DNA from: Candidatus Woesearchaeota archaeon
GTDB lineage: Archaea; Nanobdellota; Nanobdellia; SCGC-AAA011-G17; GW2011-AR20
Direction: 5' to 3'
NCBI GenBank assembly: GCA_018303005.1
Contig: JAGVYY010000031.1
Coordinates: 24,994 to 88,993, forward strand
Length of the DNA: 64,000 bases
A program made the translations under genes and the position numbers. A model generated the notes under the pieces. That model had not been told where the DNA came from. It searched no databases and saw only the letters and a list, made by a program, of their open reading frames with translations. Below, piece by piece: positions 1,661-23,643 of this stretch; positions within the stretch are counted from its first letter, which is position 1; every line of letters starts with the position of its first letter.

Positions 1661-1755
1661 TGATACTAACAGGGCAAGATATTATCAATACTTATAATAA
1701 AAGACAGCAAGAGCAATCAAGGCTTTATTTGGAATATAAAAAAATAAAAAAATAA

Positions 1756-2730
1756 AATCCAAAGCACGGCTACAAAAAAATTGCAAAAATTTTACGTCAA
1801 CCGTACGGAAAAACAAGATGGTGGCATGCAAACAAACACATCCCCATACCAATTCAAACAATCAAATGGCTAAAGAAAAGGAAATTAATTCCTTTAAATA
1901 AAAACAATGAAAGACTTTCCCTAATCTCAAAAATTCTAGGAACAACCATTGGAGACGAGCGAATCTTTGGAAATCTAAATGGAATTTTCCTATCAAGTTC
2001 AGAATTAGAATCGGTAAAAGAATTTGAGAAAGATTTGGAAGCAATTTTCGGAAAAGAAATAAAGAAAAACTCAAGGGTTATTGAAGGAGGAGGATACGGT
2101 CATTCATGGTGTTATCAAAATACAAACAGAAATGTAATAAGGTTCTTCAAAGCATTAAGGTCGCCAATAGGAAGAAAGTCAGACAAAGAGTTCCAAATTC
2201 CAAAATGGATATATTACGATCAAAAAGCTGAAGATTACTTTTTCAGTTCATTTTTCGGAAATGAAATAGGCATACCAAAGATACACAAGGATATCAAAAG
2301 AACAAATTCTTTAGACATCGGCCTAGTTTGCAAAAAGGACCAATATAAAAATAGAATGGATTTTCTAAAAAAGATTCAAGATTATCTAAAATCTAAAGAT
2401 ATCAAAGCAGATAAAATATATGCAAGACAACACAAAAATGATAAAAATAGTTTTCTCATAAAATTAGCACTAAATTTAAATTTTGATAATCTAATGAACT
2501 TCTATACAAATATAAAGAGATCATATTCAAAAAGAAAAGAAGAAAAATTAATAAATACGTTAAATGATTTAAAAGATATAAAATTACAAAGATTTAATAG
2601 CCTTTCAAATATGTATAATAAATTAACCAAAAGAAACTATTCAAAGGAATGGATTAAAAATAACTTAAGGTTAACAGAAAAATCTTTAAACTTTATCTTA
2701 AAACAAGAGAATCTGGAAAAATGGAACTAA
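1756..2730 (+). other. Intein remnant: a degenerate LAGLIDADG-type homing-endonuclease region (ILGTTIGDE and FFSSFFGNEIG blocks). It has no start codon and no N-terminal splicing blocks A/B
   Basis: The frame is open from 1756 and has no ATG until a TTG at 2035. It ends at 2730 but overlaps the intein C-terminal block in the next frame (a frame change near 2664-2730 in an A-rich run). Confidence 0.45.
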
Positions 2731-4079
2731 AATCAGAAAAAATAAAAAAAATAGAGAAAATTAAATATGAAGGATATTTATACAATTTAACAACAGAAAC
2801 AGGCAATCTTTTTGCAAATGGAATTTTAGTTAAAAATTCTGGTGGTTTAGGAACTCCTGCTTATGAGCGTTTAATTCCCGGTATGATCCATAGGTCTAAC
2901 GGTGGCGTCCTTTTTATAGATGAAATTGCTAATTTAAGACCTGAATCACAGCAAGAACTTCTAACAGCCATACAGGAAAAAAAATATCCAATAACAGGCC
3001 AATCAGAAAGATCAAGCGGTGCCATGACAAGATCAGAGCCAGTGCCTTGCGATTTTGTATTGATAGCATCTGGAAATCCAGAAACAATAAAAAAAATACA
3101 CCCTGCCTTAAGATCAAGGATAAGGGGTTATGGTTATGAAGTATATATGAACTCCACCATTGAAGACAATGAAGAAAATAGGGAAAAAATGGCCCAGTTT
3201 ATAGCACAAGAAGTGAAAAAAGATACAAAAATACCACACTTCACAAAAGATGCAGTATTGTCAATACTAGAAGAGTCTCGGAAAAGAGCAGGAAGATCAG
3301 GAAAGTTAACATTAAGGTTAAGAGAATTGGGGGGTCTAATAAGAGCAGCCGGCGATTTAGCACTTGAAGAAAAGTCAAAGTATGTACTACCTATACATAT
3401 AGAAAAAGCAAAATCCCTGGCAAGGACATTAGAACAGCAGATGGCAGATAGATATATAGAACATAAAAAAGAATATCAGATGATAGTAACACAAGGCACA
3501 TTAATAGGTAGGGTAAATGGTTTGGCAGTTTTAGGTTCTGAAAATTATTTTTCAGGAATTGTTCTACCAATAGAATCTGAAATAACTCCAGGGGGTAAAA
3601 AATCAGAGATAATCGCAACAGGCCAATTGGGAAAAATAGCAAAGGAAGCAGTAAAAAATGTTTCAGCAATCATATTGAAATATTTTGGAGAGGACATAAA
3701 AGAAAAATATGATGTTTTTGTGCAGTTTGTTCAGACATCAGAATCAGGTGTAGAAGGAGATTCAGCATCAATAGCAGTGGCAACAGCAATTGTATCGGCA
3801 TTAACAAAAGCACCTATAAAGCAAGATTTTGCCATGACAGGTTCATTATCAATAAAGGGTGAGGTTCTGGCAGTAGGAGGGGTTACACAAAAAATAGAAG
3901 CAGCCATTGAAGCAGGCATCGCAAATGTTATAATTCCAAAATCAAATGAAAAAGATATTGTTTTGTCAGAGAGTCAGTTGAAAAAGATAAAAATAATTCC
4001 TCTATCAACAATACAAGAGGTTCTTAAATTAGCCCTGGATTGGACAAATAAAAAAAATCTACTTAAAAAATTACAGTAG
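2721..4079 (+). CDS. lonB: Archaeal LonB protease, C-terminal part. An intein C-terminal splicing block ([21 protein letters not shown]|S) is followed by the Walker B motif, sensor and Ser-Lys protease domain. Walker A and the N-extein are absent from this locus
   Basis: [12 protein letters not shown] is the Walker B motif. [18 protein letters not shown] holds the catalytic Ser, with a downstream Lys. Blocks F/G of the intein sit at residues about 15-39. Confidence 0.8.
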
Positions 4080-4489: not shown

Positions 4490-6199
4490 ATGCAGGTCTT
4501 CAAAAATGAAGTAATCAATCTAGTAGAACAGATTACAGGATTAAAAAAAGAAAAAATAATTGTTTTGTTAGAACATCCTTCAGACCCATCTTTCGGAGAT
4601 CTTTCTCTCCCGTGCTTCTCTTTAACAACCATATATAAAAAAAATCCGGCCGATATCGCCAAAAGTCTAATGTCAGATGCAATTGTTTTAAAAAAATCAA
4701 CAATAAGAAGGATAGATGCAAAAGGGCCATATCTGAACTTTTTCATAAACTACAACGAGTTTGCACAATTAATTCTTAAAACAATATTAAGAGAGAAACA
4801 GCATTATGGAAGATTAAAAGGCAAGGAAGAAAAGATTATGATAGAGTACAGTTCCCCAAACACAAATAAGCCATTACACATAGGTCATTTAAGAAATGAC
4901 TCTTTAGGTATGTCGCTCTCAAACATATTGGGGTTCTCTAATCGTAAAGTGATAAGAACAGCAGTGATAAATGACAGGGGCGTCCATATCTGTAAATCAA
5001 TGTTAGCTTATAAAAAATGGGGGAATAACAAAACTCCTCAATCAACAAACACAAAATCAGATCATTTTGTAGGCTCTTTTTATGTGTTGTTTGAACAAAA
5101 ATTAAAAGAAAATCCAAATCTAGAGAGAGAAATCCACGATATGCTAAATAAATGGGAAAATAATGATAGGGGAACAAGAGAATTATGGAAGAAAATGAAC
5201 ACCTGGGTCTTGGCAGGTATGAAAAAGACATACGCTCTTTATGGGTCAAAATTTGATTTTTGGACATTCGAAAGCAACATATATGATAAAGCAAAAGAAA
5301 TAGTGAATGAAGGAATCAAAAAAAATATCTTTTCAAAAAATGAGAAAGGTGATTATATTGTTGATTTAGAACCAGAACTTCCTAATAAAGTCGTCCTAAG
5401 ATCTGATGGAACTTCAGTATATATTACACAAGATATAGCATTGGCCGAATTAAGGTTCAAAAAATACAAGATAAAAAGGTTAATCTATGTAGTGGCATCA
5501 GAACAGGTTTTACATTTTAAACAACTCTTCAGAATTTTAAGTTTGCTCGGATATGACTACTGCAAAGATTGTTACCATCTGTCTTATGGGCTTGTTAATT
5601 TACCAACGGGAAGAATGAAGACAAGAGAAGGAACAGTGGTTGATGCAGATGATCTGATAGAACAAGAGATTGAATTAGCCAAGAAAGAGATATTACAACG
5701 GAACAAAAATATAAAAAAGAAGGAGTTAGAGGAAAACTCATTGAAGATTGCCCTCTCAGCAATAAAATATTATCTCCTTAAAACAGATCCCATAAAAGAC
5801 ATATTGTTCGATTCAGAAAAAGCAATAAGATTTGAAGGCGATACAGGACCGTACGTATTATACACAATCGCCAGATGTAATAGTTTACTTGAAAAAACAA
5901 AAGAAAGCAAAGAAAGGTTCTTATCAATAGAAATTAATGATGAAGAAAGTCAGATAATAAAAAAATTGTCATTATTTCAGGATATTTTAGAGAAGGCAAC
6001 TACAGATTTAAAACCAAGTTATATTTGTGTTTATACATCAGAGTTAGCAACATTATTCAATAATTTTTATGAAAAACATAGGGTCATCGATATAGAAAAC
6101 AACACAAAAGGGTTCAGGATTGCAATTGTCAAGTCAACAAAACAAGTGTTGGAGATTTGCTTACACCTTCTTAACATCCAGTCAGTGAAACATATGTGA
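4490..6199 (+). CDS. argS: Arginyl-tRNA synthetase
   Basis: The class I HIGH motif is present (SSPNTNKPLHIGHLRN). The protein ends in Met, as ArgRS typically does. 569 aa. Confidence 0.9.
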   Translation: MQVFKNEVINLVEQITGLKKEKIIVLLEHPSDPSFGDLSLPCFSLTTIYKKNPADIAKSLMSDAIVLKKSTIRRIDAKGPYLNFFINYNEFAQLILKTILREKQHYGRLKGKEEKIMIEYSSPNTNKPLHIGHLRNDSLGMSLSNILGFSNRKVIRTAVINDRGVHICKSMLAYKKWGNNKTPQSTNTKSDHFVGSFYVLFEQKLKENPNLEREIHDMLNKWENNDRGTRELWKKMNTWVLAGMKKTYALYGSKFDFWTFESNIYDKAKEIVNEGIKKNIFSKNEKGDYIVDLEPELPNKVVLRSDGTSVYITQDIALAELRFKKYKIKRLIYVVASEQVLHFKQLFRILSLLGYDYCKDCYHLSYGLVNLPTGRMKTREGTVVDADDLIEQEIELAKKEILQRNKNIKKKELEENSLKIALSAIKYYLLKTDPIKDILFDSEKAIRFEGDTGPYVLYTIARCNSLLEKTKESKERFLSIEINDEESQIIKKLSLFQDILEKATTDLKPSYICVYTSELATLFNNFYEKHRVIDIENNTKGFRIAIVKSTKQVLEICLHLLNIQSVKHM

Positions 6200-6351
6200 T
6201 GGGGTTCTGTTAAGTTAATTAATGTTTTATAAATAAAGCCTCTTTTCAAAAGATATTAAAATGAAGTTCTTCCCGAGAAAGAAGGTCATATCAACCTAAA
6301 ATAACTCTAAAAATTAATCAGCATTACTTAAGTTAACACTTCCTGTGATGG

Positions 6352-6366
6352 AAAGGTTTATATAAA
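6352..6366 (+). promoter_or_regulatory. Archaeal BRE/TATA promoter AAAGGTTTATATAAA, about 22 nt upstream of the ATG at 6386 (near-leaderless)
   Basis: The same AAAGGTTTATAwATA motif recurs upstream of several genes (6352, 9601, 11175, 17541, 26469). Confidence 0.5.
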
Positions 6367-6385
6367 TTGTTTAAATAGCAAAAAA

Positions 6386-6820
6386 ATGCAAGTAATAGGT
6401 TTTAACATAGAAAAGATAGAAGCAGAAAAGACAGTCCAGGAAGTCAGAGATTTAAAGGTAAAATACAATACAAACATAAAATCTGTAACCTTGGAAGAGA
6501 TGAATATAGGAAAAAAACAAGAGGTTTTAAGGGTTAATTTTCAATTTAAAGTTGAATATGACCCAAACATAGGGAATATTTCTTTTACAGGCCATGTACT
6601 AATCTTAGAAGATCCTAAAAAAGCAAAAGTAATAATAGAGCAATGGAATAAAAATCAGGACAATACCACCCCATTTTCTGTTCAGGTAATTAATATAATT
6701 CTTATAAGGGCGAATATAAAAGCATTGCTAATAGCACAGGAAGTTAATCTACCTCCCCACATACCAATGCCGCGGTTGGCACCAAACAAGAATATTAGGC
6801 CAGATAACTACATTGGTTGA
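6386..6820 (+). CDS. Hypothetical protein
   Basis: 144 aa ORF preceded by the promoter motif. No recognisable domain. Confidence 0.4.
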   Translation: MQVIGFNIEKIEAEKTVQEVRDLKVKYNTNIKSVTLEEMNIGKKQEVLRVNFQFKVEYDPNIGNISFTGHVLILEDPKKAKVIIEQWNKNQDNTTPFSVQVINIILIRANIKALLIAQEVNLPPHIPMPRLAPNKNIRPDNYIG

Positions 6821-8336: not shown

Positions 8337-8739
8337 TTTGAATTTGAATTATGAAGAACTATTTCAAATAGCAGTTTCAGTATTGGAGAATATAATACCA
8401 TTACACCAAATATATGGAGATGTATCATCCAAAGATAATCTTGGTATTATTTCAATAAGTGAAGCCTACATCTCCAAATCCATCTTTTTATGTGAAAAAT
8501 ATCAGGATAAGATTGAAAAATACACTGAGGAATTGGTTTCTATATTTGACATATCTGAAGAAGGCAGTCTACTTGAAAAAGAATTATCAGAAGTTTTTAA
8601 ATTATCTTATGTTATAAACTATATAGCGAATTTTGAGAAAGGTGAAGACAAACAAGATATATTGAGAACAGCATCTTCCTGGGATAGATATACACAAATT
8701 AAAAATAAAGAAAGACAAAAATATTTAATCATGGTTTGA
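8314..8739 (+). CDS. Hypothetical protein
   Basis: ATG at 8314, overlapping the end of the upstream ORF. The track entry begins at an alternative TTG at 8233. Confidence 0.35.
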   Translation: MNQNILNNLNLNYEELFQIAVSVLENIIPLHQIYGDVSSKDNLGIISISEAYISKSIFLCEKYQDKIEKYTEELVSIFDISEEGSLLEKELSEVFKLSYVINYIANFEKGEDKQDILRTASSWDRYTQIKNKERQKYLIMV

Positions 8740-8895: not shown

Positions 8896-9147
8896 ATGGA
8901 AGAAGTTACGATTTCATTAAGGGTAGATAAAGAAGTACATAAAAAAATGAAATTACATGATGAAATAAACTGGAGCGCCTTATTAAGGAAATCAATAATA
9001 AAAACAATTGAGGATTTTGACTTTATTGATAAAGAAAGAGCAGAAAAAGCAGCTTTAAGTATGGATAAATTGAGGAAAGTAAATGCATTTTCTTCTGGAA
9101 AAGAAAGTGTTCAGGTCATTAGAGAATGGAGAAACAGACGAAAATAA
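8896..9147 (+). CDS. vapB: VapB-like antitoxin
   Basis: 83 aa. It overlaps the downstream PIN gene by a few nucleotides. A paralog is at 13327-13551. Confidence 0.55.
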   Translation: MEEVTISLRVDKEVHKKMKLHDEINWSALLRKSIIKTIEDFDFIDKERAEKAALSMDKLRKVNAFSSGKESVQVIREWRNRRK

Positions 9148-9524
9148 TAGATGCATCAATAGTTGTAAAATGGTTTGTTGATGAAGAGAATAGTAAAAAG
9201 GCTTTAGATATAAGAAACGACCATATTAATGGGAACATAAAAATTATAGTACCAGATCTTACCTTCATAGAAGTGTTAAATGCTCTTAAATATAAAGGAA
9301 AAACAGAAGAAGATTTAAAAGAAGCAAATAAGGATTTATGGGACATTCAATTACAGATAATAAAAACAACTTCTTTCACTTTAAACAAAGCAATAGAAAT
9401 AGCATTAAAACATGACATAACACTATACGATGCGCTATACATATCATTAAGCACAATATATGGTTGTCCTTTAATAACAGCAGATAAAAAATTAGCAGAT
9501 CTCCCAAATGTTCAGCTTATCTAA
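9126..9524 (+). CDS. vapC: PIN-domain VapC toxin
   Basis: KIIDASIVVKWFVDEE...ITADKKL carries the PIN acidic residues. It is translationally coupled to the upstream antitoxin. Confidence 0.8.
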   Translation: MEKQTKIIDASIVVKWFVDEENSKKALDIRNDHINGNIKIIVPDLTFIEVLNALKYKGKTEEDLKEANKDLWDIQLQIIKTTSFTLNKAIEIALKHDITLYDALYISLSTIYGCPLITADKKLADLPNVQLI

Positions 9525-10576: not shown

Positions 10577-10780
10577 ATGCAAATAGAAGTAGCAAAAGAC
10601 ATCTCGGAAAATCTTGAAAGGGCTTCTAAAGAGCTAGGGCTAAATAAAAAAGAGTTAATAACAAGGGCAATAAAATTATACCTTCACAACATAAAAGAAT
10701 ATATAATCTTGAAAGAAGAACTTGAAGCTTGGGAAAGAGCTGGAACAGAGGATCTATTAGCCTTTGAAAATAAGATATGA
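10577..10780 (+). CDS. Ribbon-helix-helix (CopG/MazE-like) antitoxin
   Basis: 67 aa with ELITRAIKLYL. It overlaps the downstream toxin gene by 4 nt (ATGA). Confidence 0.5.
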   Translation: MQIEVAKDISENLERASKELGLNKKELITRAIKLYLHNIKEYIILKEELEAWERAGTEDLLAFENKI

Positions 10781-11103
10781 AAAAAGGTGAATTATGGGTT
10801 CTAGAACTTCCATTTCTAAATGGAAGAGAACAGAGAGGCACTCGACCGTGTTTAATCCTAGCAGATACGAAAACAGACATGATTGTTGTAATTCCATTAA
10901 CCTCAAATCTTCAAGCTTTAAGATTCCCACATACTGTAGAAATAAAAAAATCTGGAGAAAATAAGCTTGAAAAAGATTCAATAGCACTAATTTTTCAAAT
11001 TCAATCGTTAGATAAAAAGAGATTTATAAATAAAATCGGAGTTTTAGAAGATTATTATTTAAGCAAGGTAGATGAAGTACTAAAAAGATTAATTCAGTTA
11101 TAA
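10777..11103 (+). CDS. mazF: MazF/PemK-family toxin (endoribonuclease)
   Basis: GELWVLELPFLNGREQRGTRPCLILAD...VIPLTS is the PemK/MazF signature. Confidence 0.7.
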   Translation: MKKGELWVLELPFLNGREQRGTRPCLILADTKTDMIVVIPLTSNLQALRFPHTVEIKKSGENKLEKDSIALIFQIQSLDKKRFINKIGVLEDYYLSKVDEVLKRLIQL

Positions 11104-22048: not shown

Positions 22049-22831
22049 TTAAAAAGCATAATTTATAACATCCTCAATATGGTCAACTTCTTTTATTGTT
22101 AGGTTTTTTTCCTGTTTAAAATAATCTACCAAATCAATTGTTTTTGGGACAAGCACTACTTTTTTTGCTTTTGTATTGCCGGAGTCTACTGTTTTTATTT
22201 GTCTCTCATAGTATGCAAACTTGCCCTGCCCTTTAGGTATCAGGAACAAGGTTAGGTTATTATCTGCAACAGCATCTGCTTTTTCTATAACTCCACCAAT
22301 CTGCCCTATTCTTCCGTCAGGTAAAATAGCTCCAGTAGCCACAACATTTTTAACTTTCTTTCCATTAATTGCTGATAGAACAGCCAGGGTCATTGCAGTT
22401 CCTGCGCTAGGGCCTCCAATAATACCGCTGTTTTCCGTATTTACATTAGGCATCTCAAAATCAATAATGACATTCACATTCCCTAGATCAACGCCAGTAA
22501 TGTTTTTTGCAACATTAACAGCAGTTATAGCACTCAATTGGGTATCAGGTTCGACAAAAGGGTTTGTGTTAACCAGGATTTTCCCTTCTCCTTCTTCAAT
22601 GTCAACATTGACTTTCCCGATAATACCAAAACCATTACTACCGACAGCAACAATATTGGCACTGCCATCTGTCTTTTTCATATCATTCTTTATGCCAAAA
22701 ACATCTGTATACAATCCAGGAATATCTGCTTTGTTGTCATTATTGTAGAAAACAAAAACACCAATCAAGAAGCCAATTAATAAAATTAGGATATAACTCC
22801 AAAAAATCTTATTCTTGTTTAGTTTTGTCAT
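22049..22831 (-). CDS. Membrane-anchored S16 (Lon-like) serine peptidase-domain protein
   Basis: N-terminal TM helix. GPSAGTAMTLAVLSAI...ATGAILPDGRIGQIGGVIEK carries the Lon proteolytic Ser/Lys signature. Confidence 0.6.
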   Translation of the reverse strand: MTKLNKNKIFWSYILILLIGFLIGVFVFYNNDNKADIPGLYTDVFGIKNDMKKTDGSANIVAVGSNGFGIIGKVNVDIEEGEGKILVNTNPFVEPDTQLSAITAVNVAKNITGVDLGNVNVIIDFEMPNVNTENSGIIGGPSAGTAMTLAVLSAINGKKVKNVVATGAILPDGRIGQIGGVIEKADAVADNNLTLFLIPKGQGKFAYYERQIKTVDSGNTKAKKVVLVPKTIDLVDYFKQEKNLTIKEVDHIEDVINYAF

Positions 22832-23450
22832 TATAAATTTCTATTCCACTCCCAATAATATTAAACAGAATCTCTTTTTTTATAGACTTCTCGATTATAA
22901 GACGTCTAAAACCACGTTCATTTACCAGCCTTATCTGTATATTACAAAAGTTTTTAAAAATATCCTCTCCCACCATATTTATTTTTTTATCATTTATATT
23001 ATAGTATACTTGATTTGTCAGCAGAACAGGTGTTTTTCTGGCTAAAATTTTTAAATGTCTCATCTGTTTTATCATCATTGCCCTTGCCAAATCTTTCTTT
23101 TTGCTTAAGAGAATTCTAAAGAAATTTGAAATTGAGTCCATGACAATTAAAGAAATGCTTTTAATATCATCTTCGTTTAGATGCAGTATCTGCCTATGCT
23201 GCCCATTAAAACTTTTAACTTTTATGTATATAAGATTATCCAGATACTTAACATAGTCCTTCCCTGCAATTTGTATGAATCTTTCCAATGAAAAGCTGTT
23301 TTCTGTATCAATAAACAAGACCCTTTTTCCTTGCCTGAGAATTTCAAAAGACTTCACAAGCATAAAGCAGGTTTTTCCAGTACCTCCTTCTCCATAAAGT
23401 ACGGAAATGCCTTTTTCAGGGTTTAAAATATGATTAAGTTTATCTTCCAT
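22809..23450 (-). CDS. RecA-superfamily ATPase (RadB/KaiC-like)
   Basis: Walker A GEGGTGKT and Walker B VLFIDTE. Likely start at MEDKLNHIL (the track ORF extends upstream in frame). Confidence 0.5.
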   Translation of the reverse strand: MEDKLNHILNPEKGISVLYGEGGTGKTCFMLVKSFEILRQGKRVLFIDTENSFSLERFIQIAGKDYVKYLDNLIYIKVKSFNGQHRQILHLNEDDIKSISLIVMDSISNFFRILLSKKKDLARAMMIKQMRHLKILARKTPVLLTNQVYYNINDKKINMVGEDIFKNFCNIQIRLVNERGFRRLIIEKSIKKEILFNIIGSGIEIYNDKTKQE

Positions 23451-23643
23451 CTTATTATTCTTATTGCAAATGCATATAAGGTCATTTAAAAGAATTTTTA
23501 TATATAAAGTTATAAAATCTATCTTGTTGAATAACACTTTTTGTGCAAAACGAGTAGTTATTGTGCAGAATTGAATATTTGTGCAAAGCCTTCTCAATCC
23601 AAAGATTTATATACATGATGTATACACACAAAGTATACACAAA

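Follow-up and report, generated by a model that had tools for sequence, protein, structure and literature searches.

The region at positions 1,661 to 4,079 of a 64,000-nucleotide (nt) stretch of DNA from a groundwater Candidatus Woesearchaeota archaeon (GCA_018303005.1, contig JAGVYY010000031.1, forward strand; hereafter the window) raises the question of where the first half of its LonB protease is encoded. The open reading frame (ORF) at 2721-4079 starts with the end of an intein and continues into the C-terminal part of LonB. A preliminary description of the sequence had offered two answers, namely that the N-terminal half, together with an N-terminal piece of the intein, is encoded elsewhere, or that the gene is truncated. 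Here we report that an N-terminal half exists a short distance upstream, and that lonB is probably fractured by a naturally split intein at the site HDPLQ/SGGLGTP (the slash marks the junction), such that protein trans-splicing would rebuild a LonB of 633 amino acids (aa). All position numbers refer to the window, which is AT-rich (32% G+C), with negative positions lying upstream of its base 1.

Both halves of LonB are encoded at one locus

Contigs of the same population were retrieved through exact identity of the 452-aa protein encoded by the lonB C-half. This protein was found on 12 contigs, 10 of which were examined, originating from separate ENA and JGI samples. The layout of the locus was identical in all 10 and no indels were found among the contigs compared. 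One of them, L001 (40.5 kilobases, kb), shows 3 mismatches to the window across the first 6.2 kb and reaches 7,280 nt farther upstream, and both lonB halves are present on a single NCBI contig of 89,270 nt. The two genes and their parts are as follows.

-1341 to -316 (L001 5939-6964), + strand: lonB N-half ORF, 341 aa, N-extein plus N-terminal intein fragment (IntN)
2721-4079, + strand: lonB C-half ORF, 452 aa, C-terminal intein fragment (IntC) plus C-extein
2721-2837, + strand: IntC, 39 aa, blocks F and G with terminal Asn and penultimate Lys (TIGR01443, Pfam Intein_splicing)
2838-4079, + strand: LonB C-extein, 413 aa plus stop, from the +1 Ser of SGGLGTP, with Walker B, LID and Ser-Lys protease

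The C-half matched the LonB equivalog model TIGR00764 with an E-value of 3.4e-183 (610.5 bits, cutoff 516.6; model positions 195-606 of 608) and residues 19-40 of the ORF matched the intein C-terminal model TIGR01443 (18.1 bits, cutoff 15.6), which bears out the earlier reading of this ORF as an intein C-terminal block, a Ser and LonB from Walker B to the protease domain. The intein/extein junction (...GILVKN/SGGLGTP) was placed between 2837 and 2838, with block G ending in Asn followed by the +1 Ser (GILVKN/SGGLG, 2835-2840). What had been called an intein remnant is, however, a conserved and complete C-terminal fragment; all 83 homologues of IntC are 37-44 aa in length and have a final Asn followed by Ser. 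The replacement of the penultimate His by Lys, also noticed at that stage, is shared by 78 of the 83. In the PDB, the IntC profile matched best to the C-terminal segments of the Mja KlbA, NrdJ-1 and Nanoarchaeum equitans PolB inteins. In the C-extein, Walker B (VLFIDE, 2907-2924) is intact, as are the Ser-Lys protease motifs (GDSASIA at 3756-3776 and a second motif at 3876-3905), and domain matches were obtained to Lon_C (E = 3.1e-33) and LonB_AAA-LID. Its sequence is 87.9% identical to the C-extein of P0123, the intein-less LonB of a close relative, and 64-79% identical to those of 62 relatives.

As the preliminary description had stated, no Walker A and no intein block A or B was found between 1660 and 1756. 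Three P-loops occur in the 64-kb window, none from a Lon; these belong to Cdc48 and to a RadA/KaiC-like gene. The N-half ends 316 nt 5' of window base 1, on the same contig and strand as the C-half. Its N-extein of 220 aa contains a Walker A motif (GLPGVGKS) and two hydrophobic segments (from approximately residues 119 and 148), which are predicted to be transmembrane, and its tail (...GALLGDVLHDPLQ, ending HDPLQ) stands directly before Ser1 of the intein. IntN comprises 121 aa, with block A SFSDKSKI (Ser1), block B LTITPEHKV (TPEH) and the end KLKKGEEIFIN before the stop, and shows two of the marks of a class-1 intein, a nucleophile at residue 1 (Ser1) and a TxxH block B (TITPEHKV). The LonB N-terminal ORF ending in blocks A and B that had been proposed as a partner was thus found, with the correction that "elsewhere" is the same locus, approximately 3 kb upstream. 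The gap between the halves measures 3036 nt and holds two other genes and an endonuclease pseudogene.

Position 1 of IntN is Ser in 84, Cys in 15 and Thr in 8 of 108 homologues, and the block B His is present in 108 and the block B Thr in 105 of these. A VLSVN(K/R)Y motif is conserved where the NX-motif His of Ser1 inteins has been reported, and no invariant counterpart of that His is evident in the IntN family. The IntN profile matched solved inteins, led by Mja KlbA (E = 3.9e-10) and followed by PolB, CDC21, PolB16 and VMA. Neither IntN nor IntC contains cysteine, the nucleophiles being Ser1 and Ser+1. Judged from this conservation, the catalytic residues of the intein are under purifying selection.

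That the two halves belong together follows from the profile score of the joined intein, the alignment of the spliced product and the motif restored at the junction. When joined in silico, IntN and IntC scored 44.3 bits on Pfam Intein_splicing (PF14890, cutoff 35.8), with the separate halves below the cutoff at 22.1 and 19.4 bits. The in silico spliced product of 633 aa aligned without gaps to P0123 (631 aa), which matches the Thermococcus onnurineus LonB structure 3K1J, with 89.2% identity over 610 aa. The restored HDPLQ/SGGLGTP is a strictly conserved LonB motif, also found in 3K1J, and Walker A, the hydrophobic pair, Walker B, LID and the Ser-Lys protease follow each other in LonB order. 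IntN and IntC are located on separate genes and each is fused to part of LonB, which is the arrangement of a split intein.

In the mechanism proposed here, the N-half and C-half polypeptides would be translated separately, with the N-half expressed separately from a string of genes composed of a TrmB-family regulator, the endonuclease pseudogene and the lonB C-half. IntN and IntC would then associate to form one HINT domain, and class-1 trans-splicing would proceed through an N-O acyl shift at Ser1, followed by attack of Ser+1 and then by cyclisation at the terminal Asn, giving the ligated LonB of 633 aa and releasing the intein fragments. The former LAGLIDADG endonuclease of the intein has become a separate gene, and the genes of a GDSL lipase and the TrmB-family regulator have been inserted between the halves.

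Distribution and architecture of the split in relatives

More than 100 clusters homologous to the N-half were found, mostly of 315-345 aa and with 46-71% identity, together with many clusters homologous to the C-half (450-461 aa), all opening with an IntC of 37-44 aa. The named clusters of both halves are mostly labelled as Woesearchaeota, Nanoarchaeota or Nanoarchaeia. For a census, the IntN profile was run over one genome per GTDB species, giving 67 loci; these and the loci found earlier were classified with four hidden Markov models (HMMs) on stop-to-stop ORFs. The total of 72 loci, composed of the contig of the window and 71 relatives, was distributed as follows.

37/72 loci: N-extein, IntN and endonuclease in one ORF, IntC and C-extein in a separate ORF
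14/72 loci: three separate ORFs, with a free-standing intact endonuclease (e.g., L013, L016)
9/72 loci: no endonuclease detected between the halves
8/72 loci: fragmentary endonuclease, the window included
1/72 loci: contiguous mini-intein (L036)
3/72 loci: incomplete

In the largest class (L024, L026, L028, L033-L035, L037-L046, L048, L049, L051-L062, L065, L066, L069, L075, L076, L079, and L080), the two ORFs are often joined by an ATGA overlap and are sometimes 200-600 nt apart. The nine loci counted as having no endonuclease include L072, whose placement is a classification artefact, its endonuclease ORF overlapping the end of the N-half. The locus of Nanoarchaeota archaeon SCGC AAA011-G17 (L015) is likewise split. 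Median identities to the pieces of the window (53-62 loci) were 55.5% for the N-extein, 38.7% for IntN, 47.9% for the endonuclease, 62.8% for IntC and 69.0% for the C-extein. L036 (7332-9719) carries an endonuclease-free mini-intein at the same site in a single ORF of 796 aa and represents a natural cis-splicing counterpart.

Outside this group, contiguous one-ORF Lon inteins at the same site were found in the uncultured sequences P0352, P0362 and P0364 and in Thermococcus nautili WP_042693108.1. The comparison with Thermococcales Lon inteins, which had been suggested in the preliminary description, shows the insertion site to be identical to that of the contiguous T. nautili LonB intein. In the one-ORF relatives the penultimate residue is Lys (T. 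nautili P0372, P0362, P0364, and L036) or Ser (P0352) and never His. The endonuclease domain of the contiguous proteins (...IDEQDIINTYD...) starts exactly where the free-standing ORFs start. Because the contiguous forms share the site, have a homologous endonuclease and match in the start of that domain, the split form is, on the evidence of these alignments, the known Lon intein broken at both borders of its endonuclease domain.

Locus L082 (P0147, 1-900) gave the first impression of a contiguous intein; a frame break is present in it. In this locus, N-extein and IntN are in a different frame from endonuclease, IntC and C-extein, and the break lies inside the N-terminal helix-turn-helix region of the endonuclease, representing either another type of split or a sequencing error. 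Further inteins were observed in lonB of L023, L071 and L079 (at approximately position 55 of the N-extein, in the Walker A region) and of L064 (at approximately position 110 of the C-half), suggesting that within this clade LonB is an intein hot-spot.

The C-exteins nearest to that of the window belong to intein-less LonB proteins (87.9, 84.5, and 84.2% identity); among split relatives the highest value is 80.1%. In a neighbour-joining tree of 120 C-exteins the split and intein-less states are interleaved, with a parsimony minimum of 10 changes. This interleaving and the intein-less nearest kin imply that the intein was repeatedly gained, or was precisely lost through allelic exchange, and would fit a homing cycle driven by the endonuclease. 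L014, the relative closest in its flanking genes (PRC-domain protein 79%, arginyl-tRNA synthetase (ArgRS) 63%), has an uninterrupted lonB. Directly 3' of this lonB there is an ORF of 364 aa (5379-6473) with LAGLIDADG_3 and HTH_11 domains (Pfam E = 4.5e-7). The Lon-intein endonuclease HMM does not match it, and it is a different free-standing gene.

The endonuclease gene between the halves

Immediately upstream of the C-half, the preliminary description had reported a LAGLIDADG-like region at 1756-2730 that had no start codon. The lack of a usable start was confirmed; the region is, however, part of a separate gene outside the LonB frame, which begins at ATG 1657 and is interrupted by a TAA. 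Its features are listed below.

1657-2730, + strand: LAGLIDADG homing endonuclease (HEN) gene, 357 codons, formerly free-standing and read here as a pseudogene
1753-1755, + strand: nonsense TAA at HEN codon 33, where intact relatives carry Gln or Glu
1933-1971, + strand: LAGLIDADG motif 1, ILGTTIGDERIFG, catalytic Asp retained, near-invariant GDGG changed to GDER
2239-2271, + strand: LAGLIDADG motif 2, FFSSFFGNEIG, acidic Glu retained
2721-2730, + strand: 10 nt shared by the HEN end (stop TAA 2728-2730) and the beginning of the lonB C-half (ATG 2721-2723)

The HEN frame consists of a 32-codon head from ATG 1657, the in-frame TAA and 324 open codons, and apart from the TAA it is collinear from end to end with the intact ORFs of 356-362 aa of L011, L012 and L013. 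The frame at 1756-2727 matched the intein part of NF038162, a model of intein-containing RtcB (E = 1.1e-23), and Pfam and PDB sequence-profile searches with the HEN frame gave no match. The family comprises approximately 100 clusters at 44-72% identity, mostly of about 357 aa, and its named clusters are annotated as "hypothetical protein", except for two partial sequences labelled Lon protease by JGI. As the sequence-profile searches gave nothing, the placement of HEN among LAGLIDADG proteins was made through structure prediction and Foldseek. An AlphaFold2 model of the family (predicted local distance difference test, pLDDT, 93.5; predicted template modelling score, pTM, 0.89) matched I-DmoI, E-DreI, I-Tsp061I and the TliVMA intein endonuclease with a probability of 1.0 and target-normalised TM-scores of 0.65-0.70. 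According to this model, HEN is a double-motif LAGLIDADG fold with acidic catalytic residues.

All 10 same-population contigs compared, among them L003 and L009 with variant haplotypes, carry the TAA at 1753-1755, and the first in-frame ATG, GTG or TTG after it is TTG 2035, which lies past LAGLIDADG motif 1. Single-nucleotide polymorphisms (SNPs) within the population were used for assessing constraint, since synonymous sites are saturated between relatives (30-50% amino-acid divergence, 32% G+C). Of the 13 polymorphic sites in HEN, 12 are nonsynonymous and one synonymous, while TrmB has none and ArgRS has one, which is synonymous; the count for the lonB C-half (0 nonsynonymous) is biased, as the contigs were chosen by exact identity of that protein. 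The HEN frame departs from the consensus at 3 of 99 highly conserved columns, the mean for intact homologues being 3.1. From the shared TAA, the lack of a usable start before motif 1 and the SNP excess, yet so few deviations at conserved columns, we read HEN as a recently inactivated pseudogene in this population.

The 10-nt overlap reads AAA TGG AAC TAA in the HEN frame versus ATG GAA CTA AAA in the frame of the C-half, and is kept as GAAAAATGGAAnTAA or GAAAAATGGATCTAA in L001, L011 and L013. An error at the frame junction (2664-2730), which the preliminary description had wanted verified, is ruled out, whether as frameshift or as assembly error, by the conservation of this genuine overlap in L011 and L013 and by the indel-free contigs. 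In L015 the HEN gene is deleted, yet its final approximately 20 nt persist before the ATG of the C-half. The halves are 42 nt apart there (8363-8406) and the spacer contains a remnant of the HEN 3' end, TTGGAAAAATGGAACTAA. By its sequence and position, this remnant is the scar of a HEN deletion that preserved the start of the C-half.

Passenger genes and flanking region

The remaining part of the gap is occupied by two passenger genes and a promoter-like element.

1-852, continuing to -275 (L001 7005-8132), - strand: GDSL-family lipase, passenger gene 1, 375 aa (gene table and Pfam)
921-928, + strand: TATA-box-like element TTTAAATA, 21 nt 5' of the TrmB ATG, read by eye
950-1660, + strand: TrmB-family regulator, passenger gene 2, 236 aa (Pfam TrmB, E = 5.7e-11)

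The lipase gene is located between the lonB halves on the opposite strand, with the N-half just beyond it. Its population SNPs in 852 nt (6 nonsynonymous, 2 synonymous) occur at a density far above that of TrmB or ArgRS, which may reflect relaxed constraint. The TGA stop of TrmB and the start codon of the endonuclease gene overlap in ATGATGA. This stop/start overlap is also found in L011, and in L017 a TrmB gene lies just 5' of the HEN gene. In L011, TTAATATA is present at about the same distance 5' of the TrmB ATG, and TTTATA-type elements are found 5' of the free-standing HEN genes of L012 and L013. On the basis of the string of overlapping genes on one strand and of the TATA-like element at 921-928, a single operon probably comprises TrmB, the endonuclease pseudogene and the lonB C-half, and TTTAAATA is a possible promoter of a leaderless transcript of the three. 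Extra sequence of 2.2-3.9 kb between the halves is present in six loci (L001, L011, L017, L018, L025, and L032), with the genes within it annotated in L001 and L011.

The chromosomal neighbours of the split lonB, PolD, Cdc6 and ArgRS, indicate a cellular setting. L001 1-5517, which lies upstream of the window, carries PolD DP2, DP1 and Cdc6/Orc1 on the minus strand; then come an intergenic region of approximately 500 nt, a PRC-domain gene and the lonB N-half, an order that is kept in relatives. The intergenic gap beside Cdc6 may be a replication origin. Toxin-antitoxin-like genes are found 3' of ArgRS, namely RHH_12 and PIN (approximately 8896-9524) and PemK (10777-11103), according to the L001 gene table.

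It is possible, though on balance doubtful, that the LonB split intein, the LAGLIDADG gene and the passengers form a still-mobile composite cassette, which would come and go as one piece through homing or allelic recombination within DPANN populations, and that the split may have been co-opted for regulation. If so, assembling active LonB would call for joint expression of two transcription units under separate control, and the C-half would be governed by the TrmB-family regulator.

Alternative explanations

A number of points weigh against trans-splicing. The canonical penultimate His of block G is absent and Lys stands in its place, and block F reads YNL...GNLF, with Asn replacing both the usual Asp and the usual His. 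There is no obvious charge complementarity between the fragments (net charge +15 for IntN and +2 for IntC), and with early termination of HEN the translational coupling to the start of the C-half would be lost. The locus was examined on a contig rather than in a closed genome, and a second intact lonB elsewhere is possible. The architecture, the homologies and the conservation across many genomes were observed directly, and from these we infer the splicing chemistry, the expression of the halves and the operon, trans-splicing being deduced from sequence conservation. The non-canonical residues are tempered by the fact that the Asp and His of blocks F and G count as assisting residues, with the block F positions less conserved (PMC4031507), by work cited therein in which splicing occurs without the penultimate His, and by the penultimate Lys of the contiguous T. 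nautili Lon intein. These same residues could be taken to mean that the halves come together non-covalently, with the role of the intein fragments limited to that of dimerisation handles and no peptide bond formed, for which there is a precedent in NrdA of phage Aeh1, an enzyme split by an endonuclease gene and reportedly reassembled through interaction domains (PMC3045599). This is improbable, as residues needed only for splicing are kept in more than 80 diverged sequences (only Ser, Cys or Thr at position 1; block B His, terminal Asn and +1 Ser invariant; block B Thr in 105 of 108), and the one-ORF relatives, which are bound to splice in order to give a collinear LonB, also lack the penultimate His. 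That lonB is dead and truncated, its C-half a decaying remnant and another Lon-like protein its substitute, would agree with the lack of an N-terminal half inside the window and with the Lon-protease-domain protein at 22049-22831, which the preliminary description had correctly recognised (Lon_C, E = 3.9e-9, one N-terminal hydrophobic segment). We consider this very improbable given the intact N-half 316 nt 5' of the window, the well-conserved C-extein with intact Walker B and Ser-Lys dyad, and the retention of the same split in about 70 genomes; the truncation proposed earlier is rejected. The Lon_C/S16 protein (22049-22831, - strand, 260 aa, GPSAG...K), whose gene overlaps that of a RadA/KaiC-like ATPase (22809-23597, - strand), has no AAA+ module and is not a LonB substitute.

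The switch of frame at 2721-2730 and the error-prone A-runs of this AT-rich DNA could also suggest that the split arose as an error of assembly or sequencing, in the form of a frameshift or a chimeric join within a contiguous intein-containing lonB. The probability of this is negligible, as ten contigs from separate samples agree without indels, two complete genes, one of them on the opposite strand, lie between the halves, the stop/start overlap persists at approximately 69% amino-acid divergence, and the split recurs in L015 and in dozens of metagenome-assembled genomes from other studies. For the endonuclease, function could have been retained through read-through of the TAA or through re-initiation, with the element still mobile here; the 324-codon frame is otherwise open, its 3 deviations in 99 conserved columns do not exceed those of intact homologues and both acidic LAGLIDADG residues are kept. 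Such retention is unlikely, since no ATG, GTG or TTG occurs before TTG 2035, beyond motif 1, two near-invariant glycines of that motif are replaced and the polymorphism stands at 12 nonsynonymous to 1 synonymous. Reassignment or read-through of TAA was likewise judged unlikely, as TAA is an ordinary stop nearby, terminating the N-half and the endonuclease gene itself and serving as the second stop of the C-half. A split intein that rebuilds LonB by trans-splicing, with a recently inactivated endonuclease gene between its halves, is the reading carried forward below.

Comparison with known systems

Split inteins whose halves flank a gene for a free-standing endonuclease have been described as fractured genes (Dassa et al., 2009; PMC2677866). 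The lonB locus has in common with these the order N-part with IntN, endonuclease, and IntC with C-part on the same strand, the overlap of the endonuclease with the start of the downstream half and a split where endonucleases are canonically inserted. In both there are also versions that lack the endonuclease, such as gp41-7 (PMC2677866) and, here, L015 and others. The loci described in that study are mostly of proposed phage origin and concern DNA-metabolism enzymes, with GIY-YIG or Vsr-like endonucleases and spacers of 27-51 nt. By contrast, lonB lies on a cellular DPANN archaeal chromosome and encodes a protease; the endonuclease here belongs to the LAGLIDADG family and is collinear with the domain that contiguous Lon inteins carry in frame. 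A free-standing endonuclease between halves on one strand is found in the 14 relatives with an intact gene. The window differs further through its two inserted passenger genes, one of them on the opposite strand, and through an endonuclease which is present but, with a TAA at codon 33, not translatable intact; the spacer from IntN to the endonuclease is approximately 2 kb and holds two genes, and the GIY-YIG or Vsr type, the phage origin and the short spacer are all absent. With lonB, the fractured-gene arrangement gains a new variant that is archaeal, cellular and of LAGLIDADG type.

Among contiguous inteins, the closest comparison is LonB of T. nautili (WP_042693108.1), which has the same site (HDPFQ/SGGLGTP), a block G of ...VKN/S with penultimate Lys and an endonuclease domain homologous to the family of the window (E = 2.3e-41 to the family profile). 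It differs in being a single ORF of 1108 aa with Cys1 (GDVRHDPFQ/CFSGNES...NGLFVKN/), while the window has a split intein with Ser1 and a separate endonuclease gene. A Lon intein of Pyrococcus abyssi is cited in PMC4031507, and Novikova et al. (2016; PMC4760082) list LonB inteins for Euryarchaeota only. In the open-access full-text literature, where absence is not proof, neither a split LonB intein nor an intein in LonB of Woesearchaeota was found to be described, and the literature searched gave no account of a natural split intein with the endonuclease domain on its N-fragment. The split is also overlooked in public annotation, in which the halves appear as "ATP-binding protein" and "LonB" and the endonuclease as "hypothetical".

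To our knowledge, natural split inteins in cellular genomes are few, the cases being cyanobacterial DnaE and N. equitans PolB. These resemble the lonB pair in their cellular setting, in being divided at the canonical site and in combining a long IntN with an IntC of approximately 30-40 aa, and the IntC profile matches NEQ528, the N. equitans IntC, in register. They differ in that their halves lie at distant loci with no endonuclease gene (PMC2677866), whereas the lonB halves share one locus with an endonuclease gene, and in that the lonB intein resides in another host protein, has Ser as both nucleophiles and is cysteine-free in both fragments. Dozens of species in a large archaeal radiation have this housekeeping protease split, and in these organisms, with their reduced genomes, protein trans-splicing is probably required for LonB activity. 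The relatives hold every proposed intermediate, from the contiguous intein with endonuclease and the contiguous mini-intein to the endonuclease on the N-fragment, the free-standing, the decaying and the lost endonuclease, and inserted passenger genes, all of which coexist. Through this series the origin of split inteins becomes a question open to comparative analysis.

The fragments themselves are similar in design to the cysteine-less split inteins Aes123 PolB1, PolB16 OarG and LCGC14, which, like the lonB pair, combine about 120 with about 39 aa and have the Ser1/Ser+1 oxyester chemistry predicted for that pair. Those used in engineering come from phage or metagenomic DNA polymerases, and the class is regarded as rare and useful (PMC10189870, PMC12707363). 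The lonB pair, cysteine-free and with Ser1 and Ser+1 as its predicted nucleophiles, may be of similar use in protein engineering.

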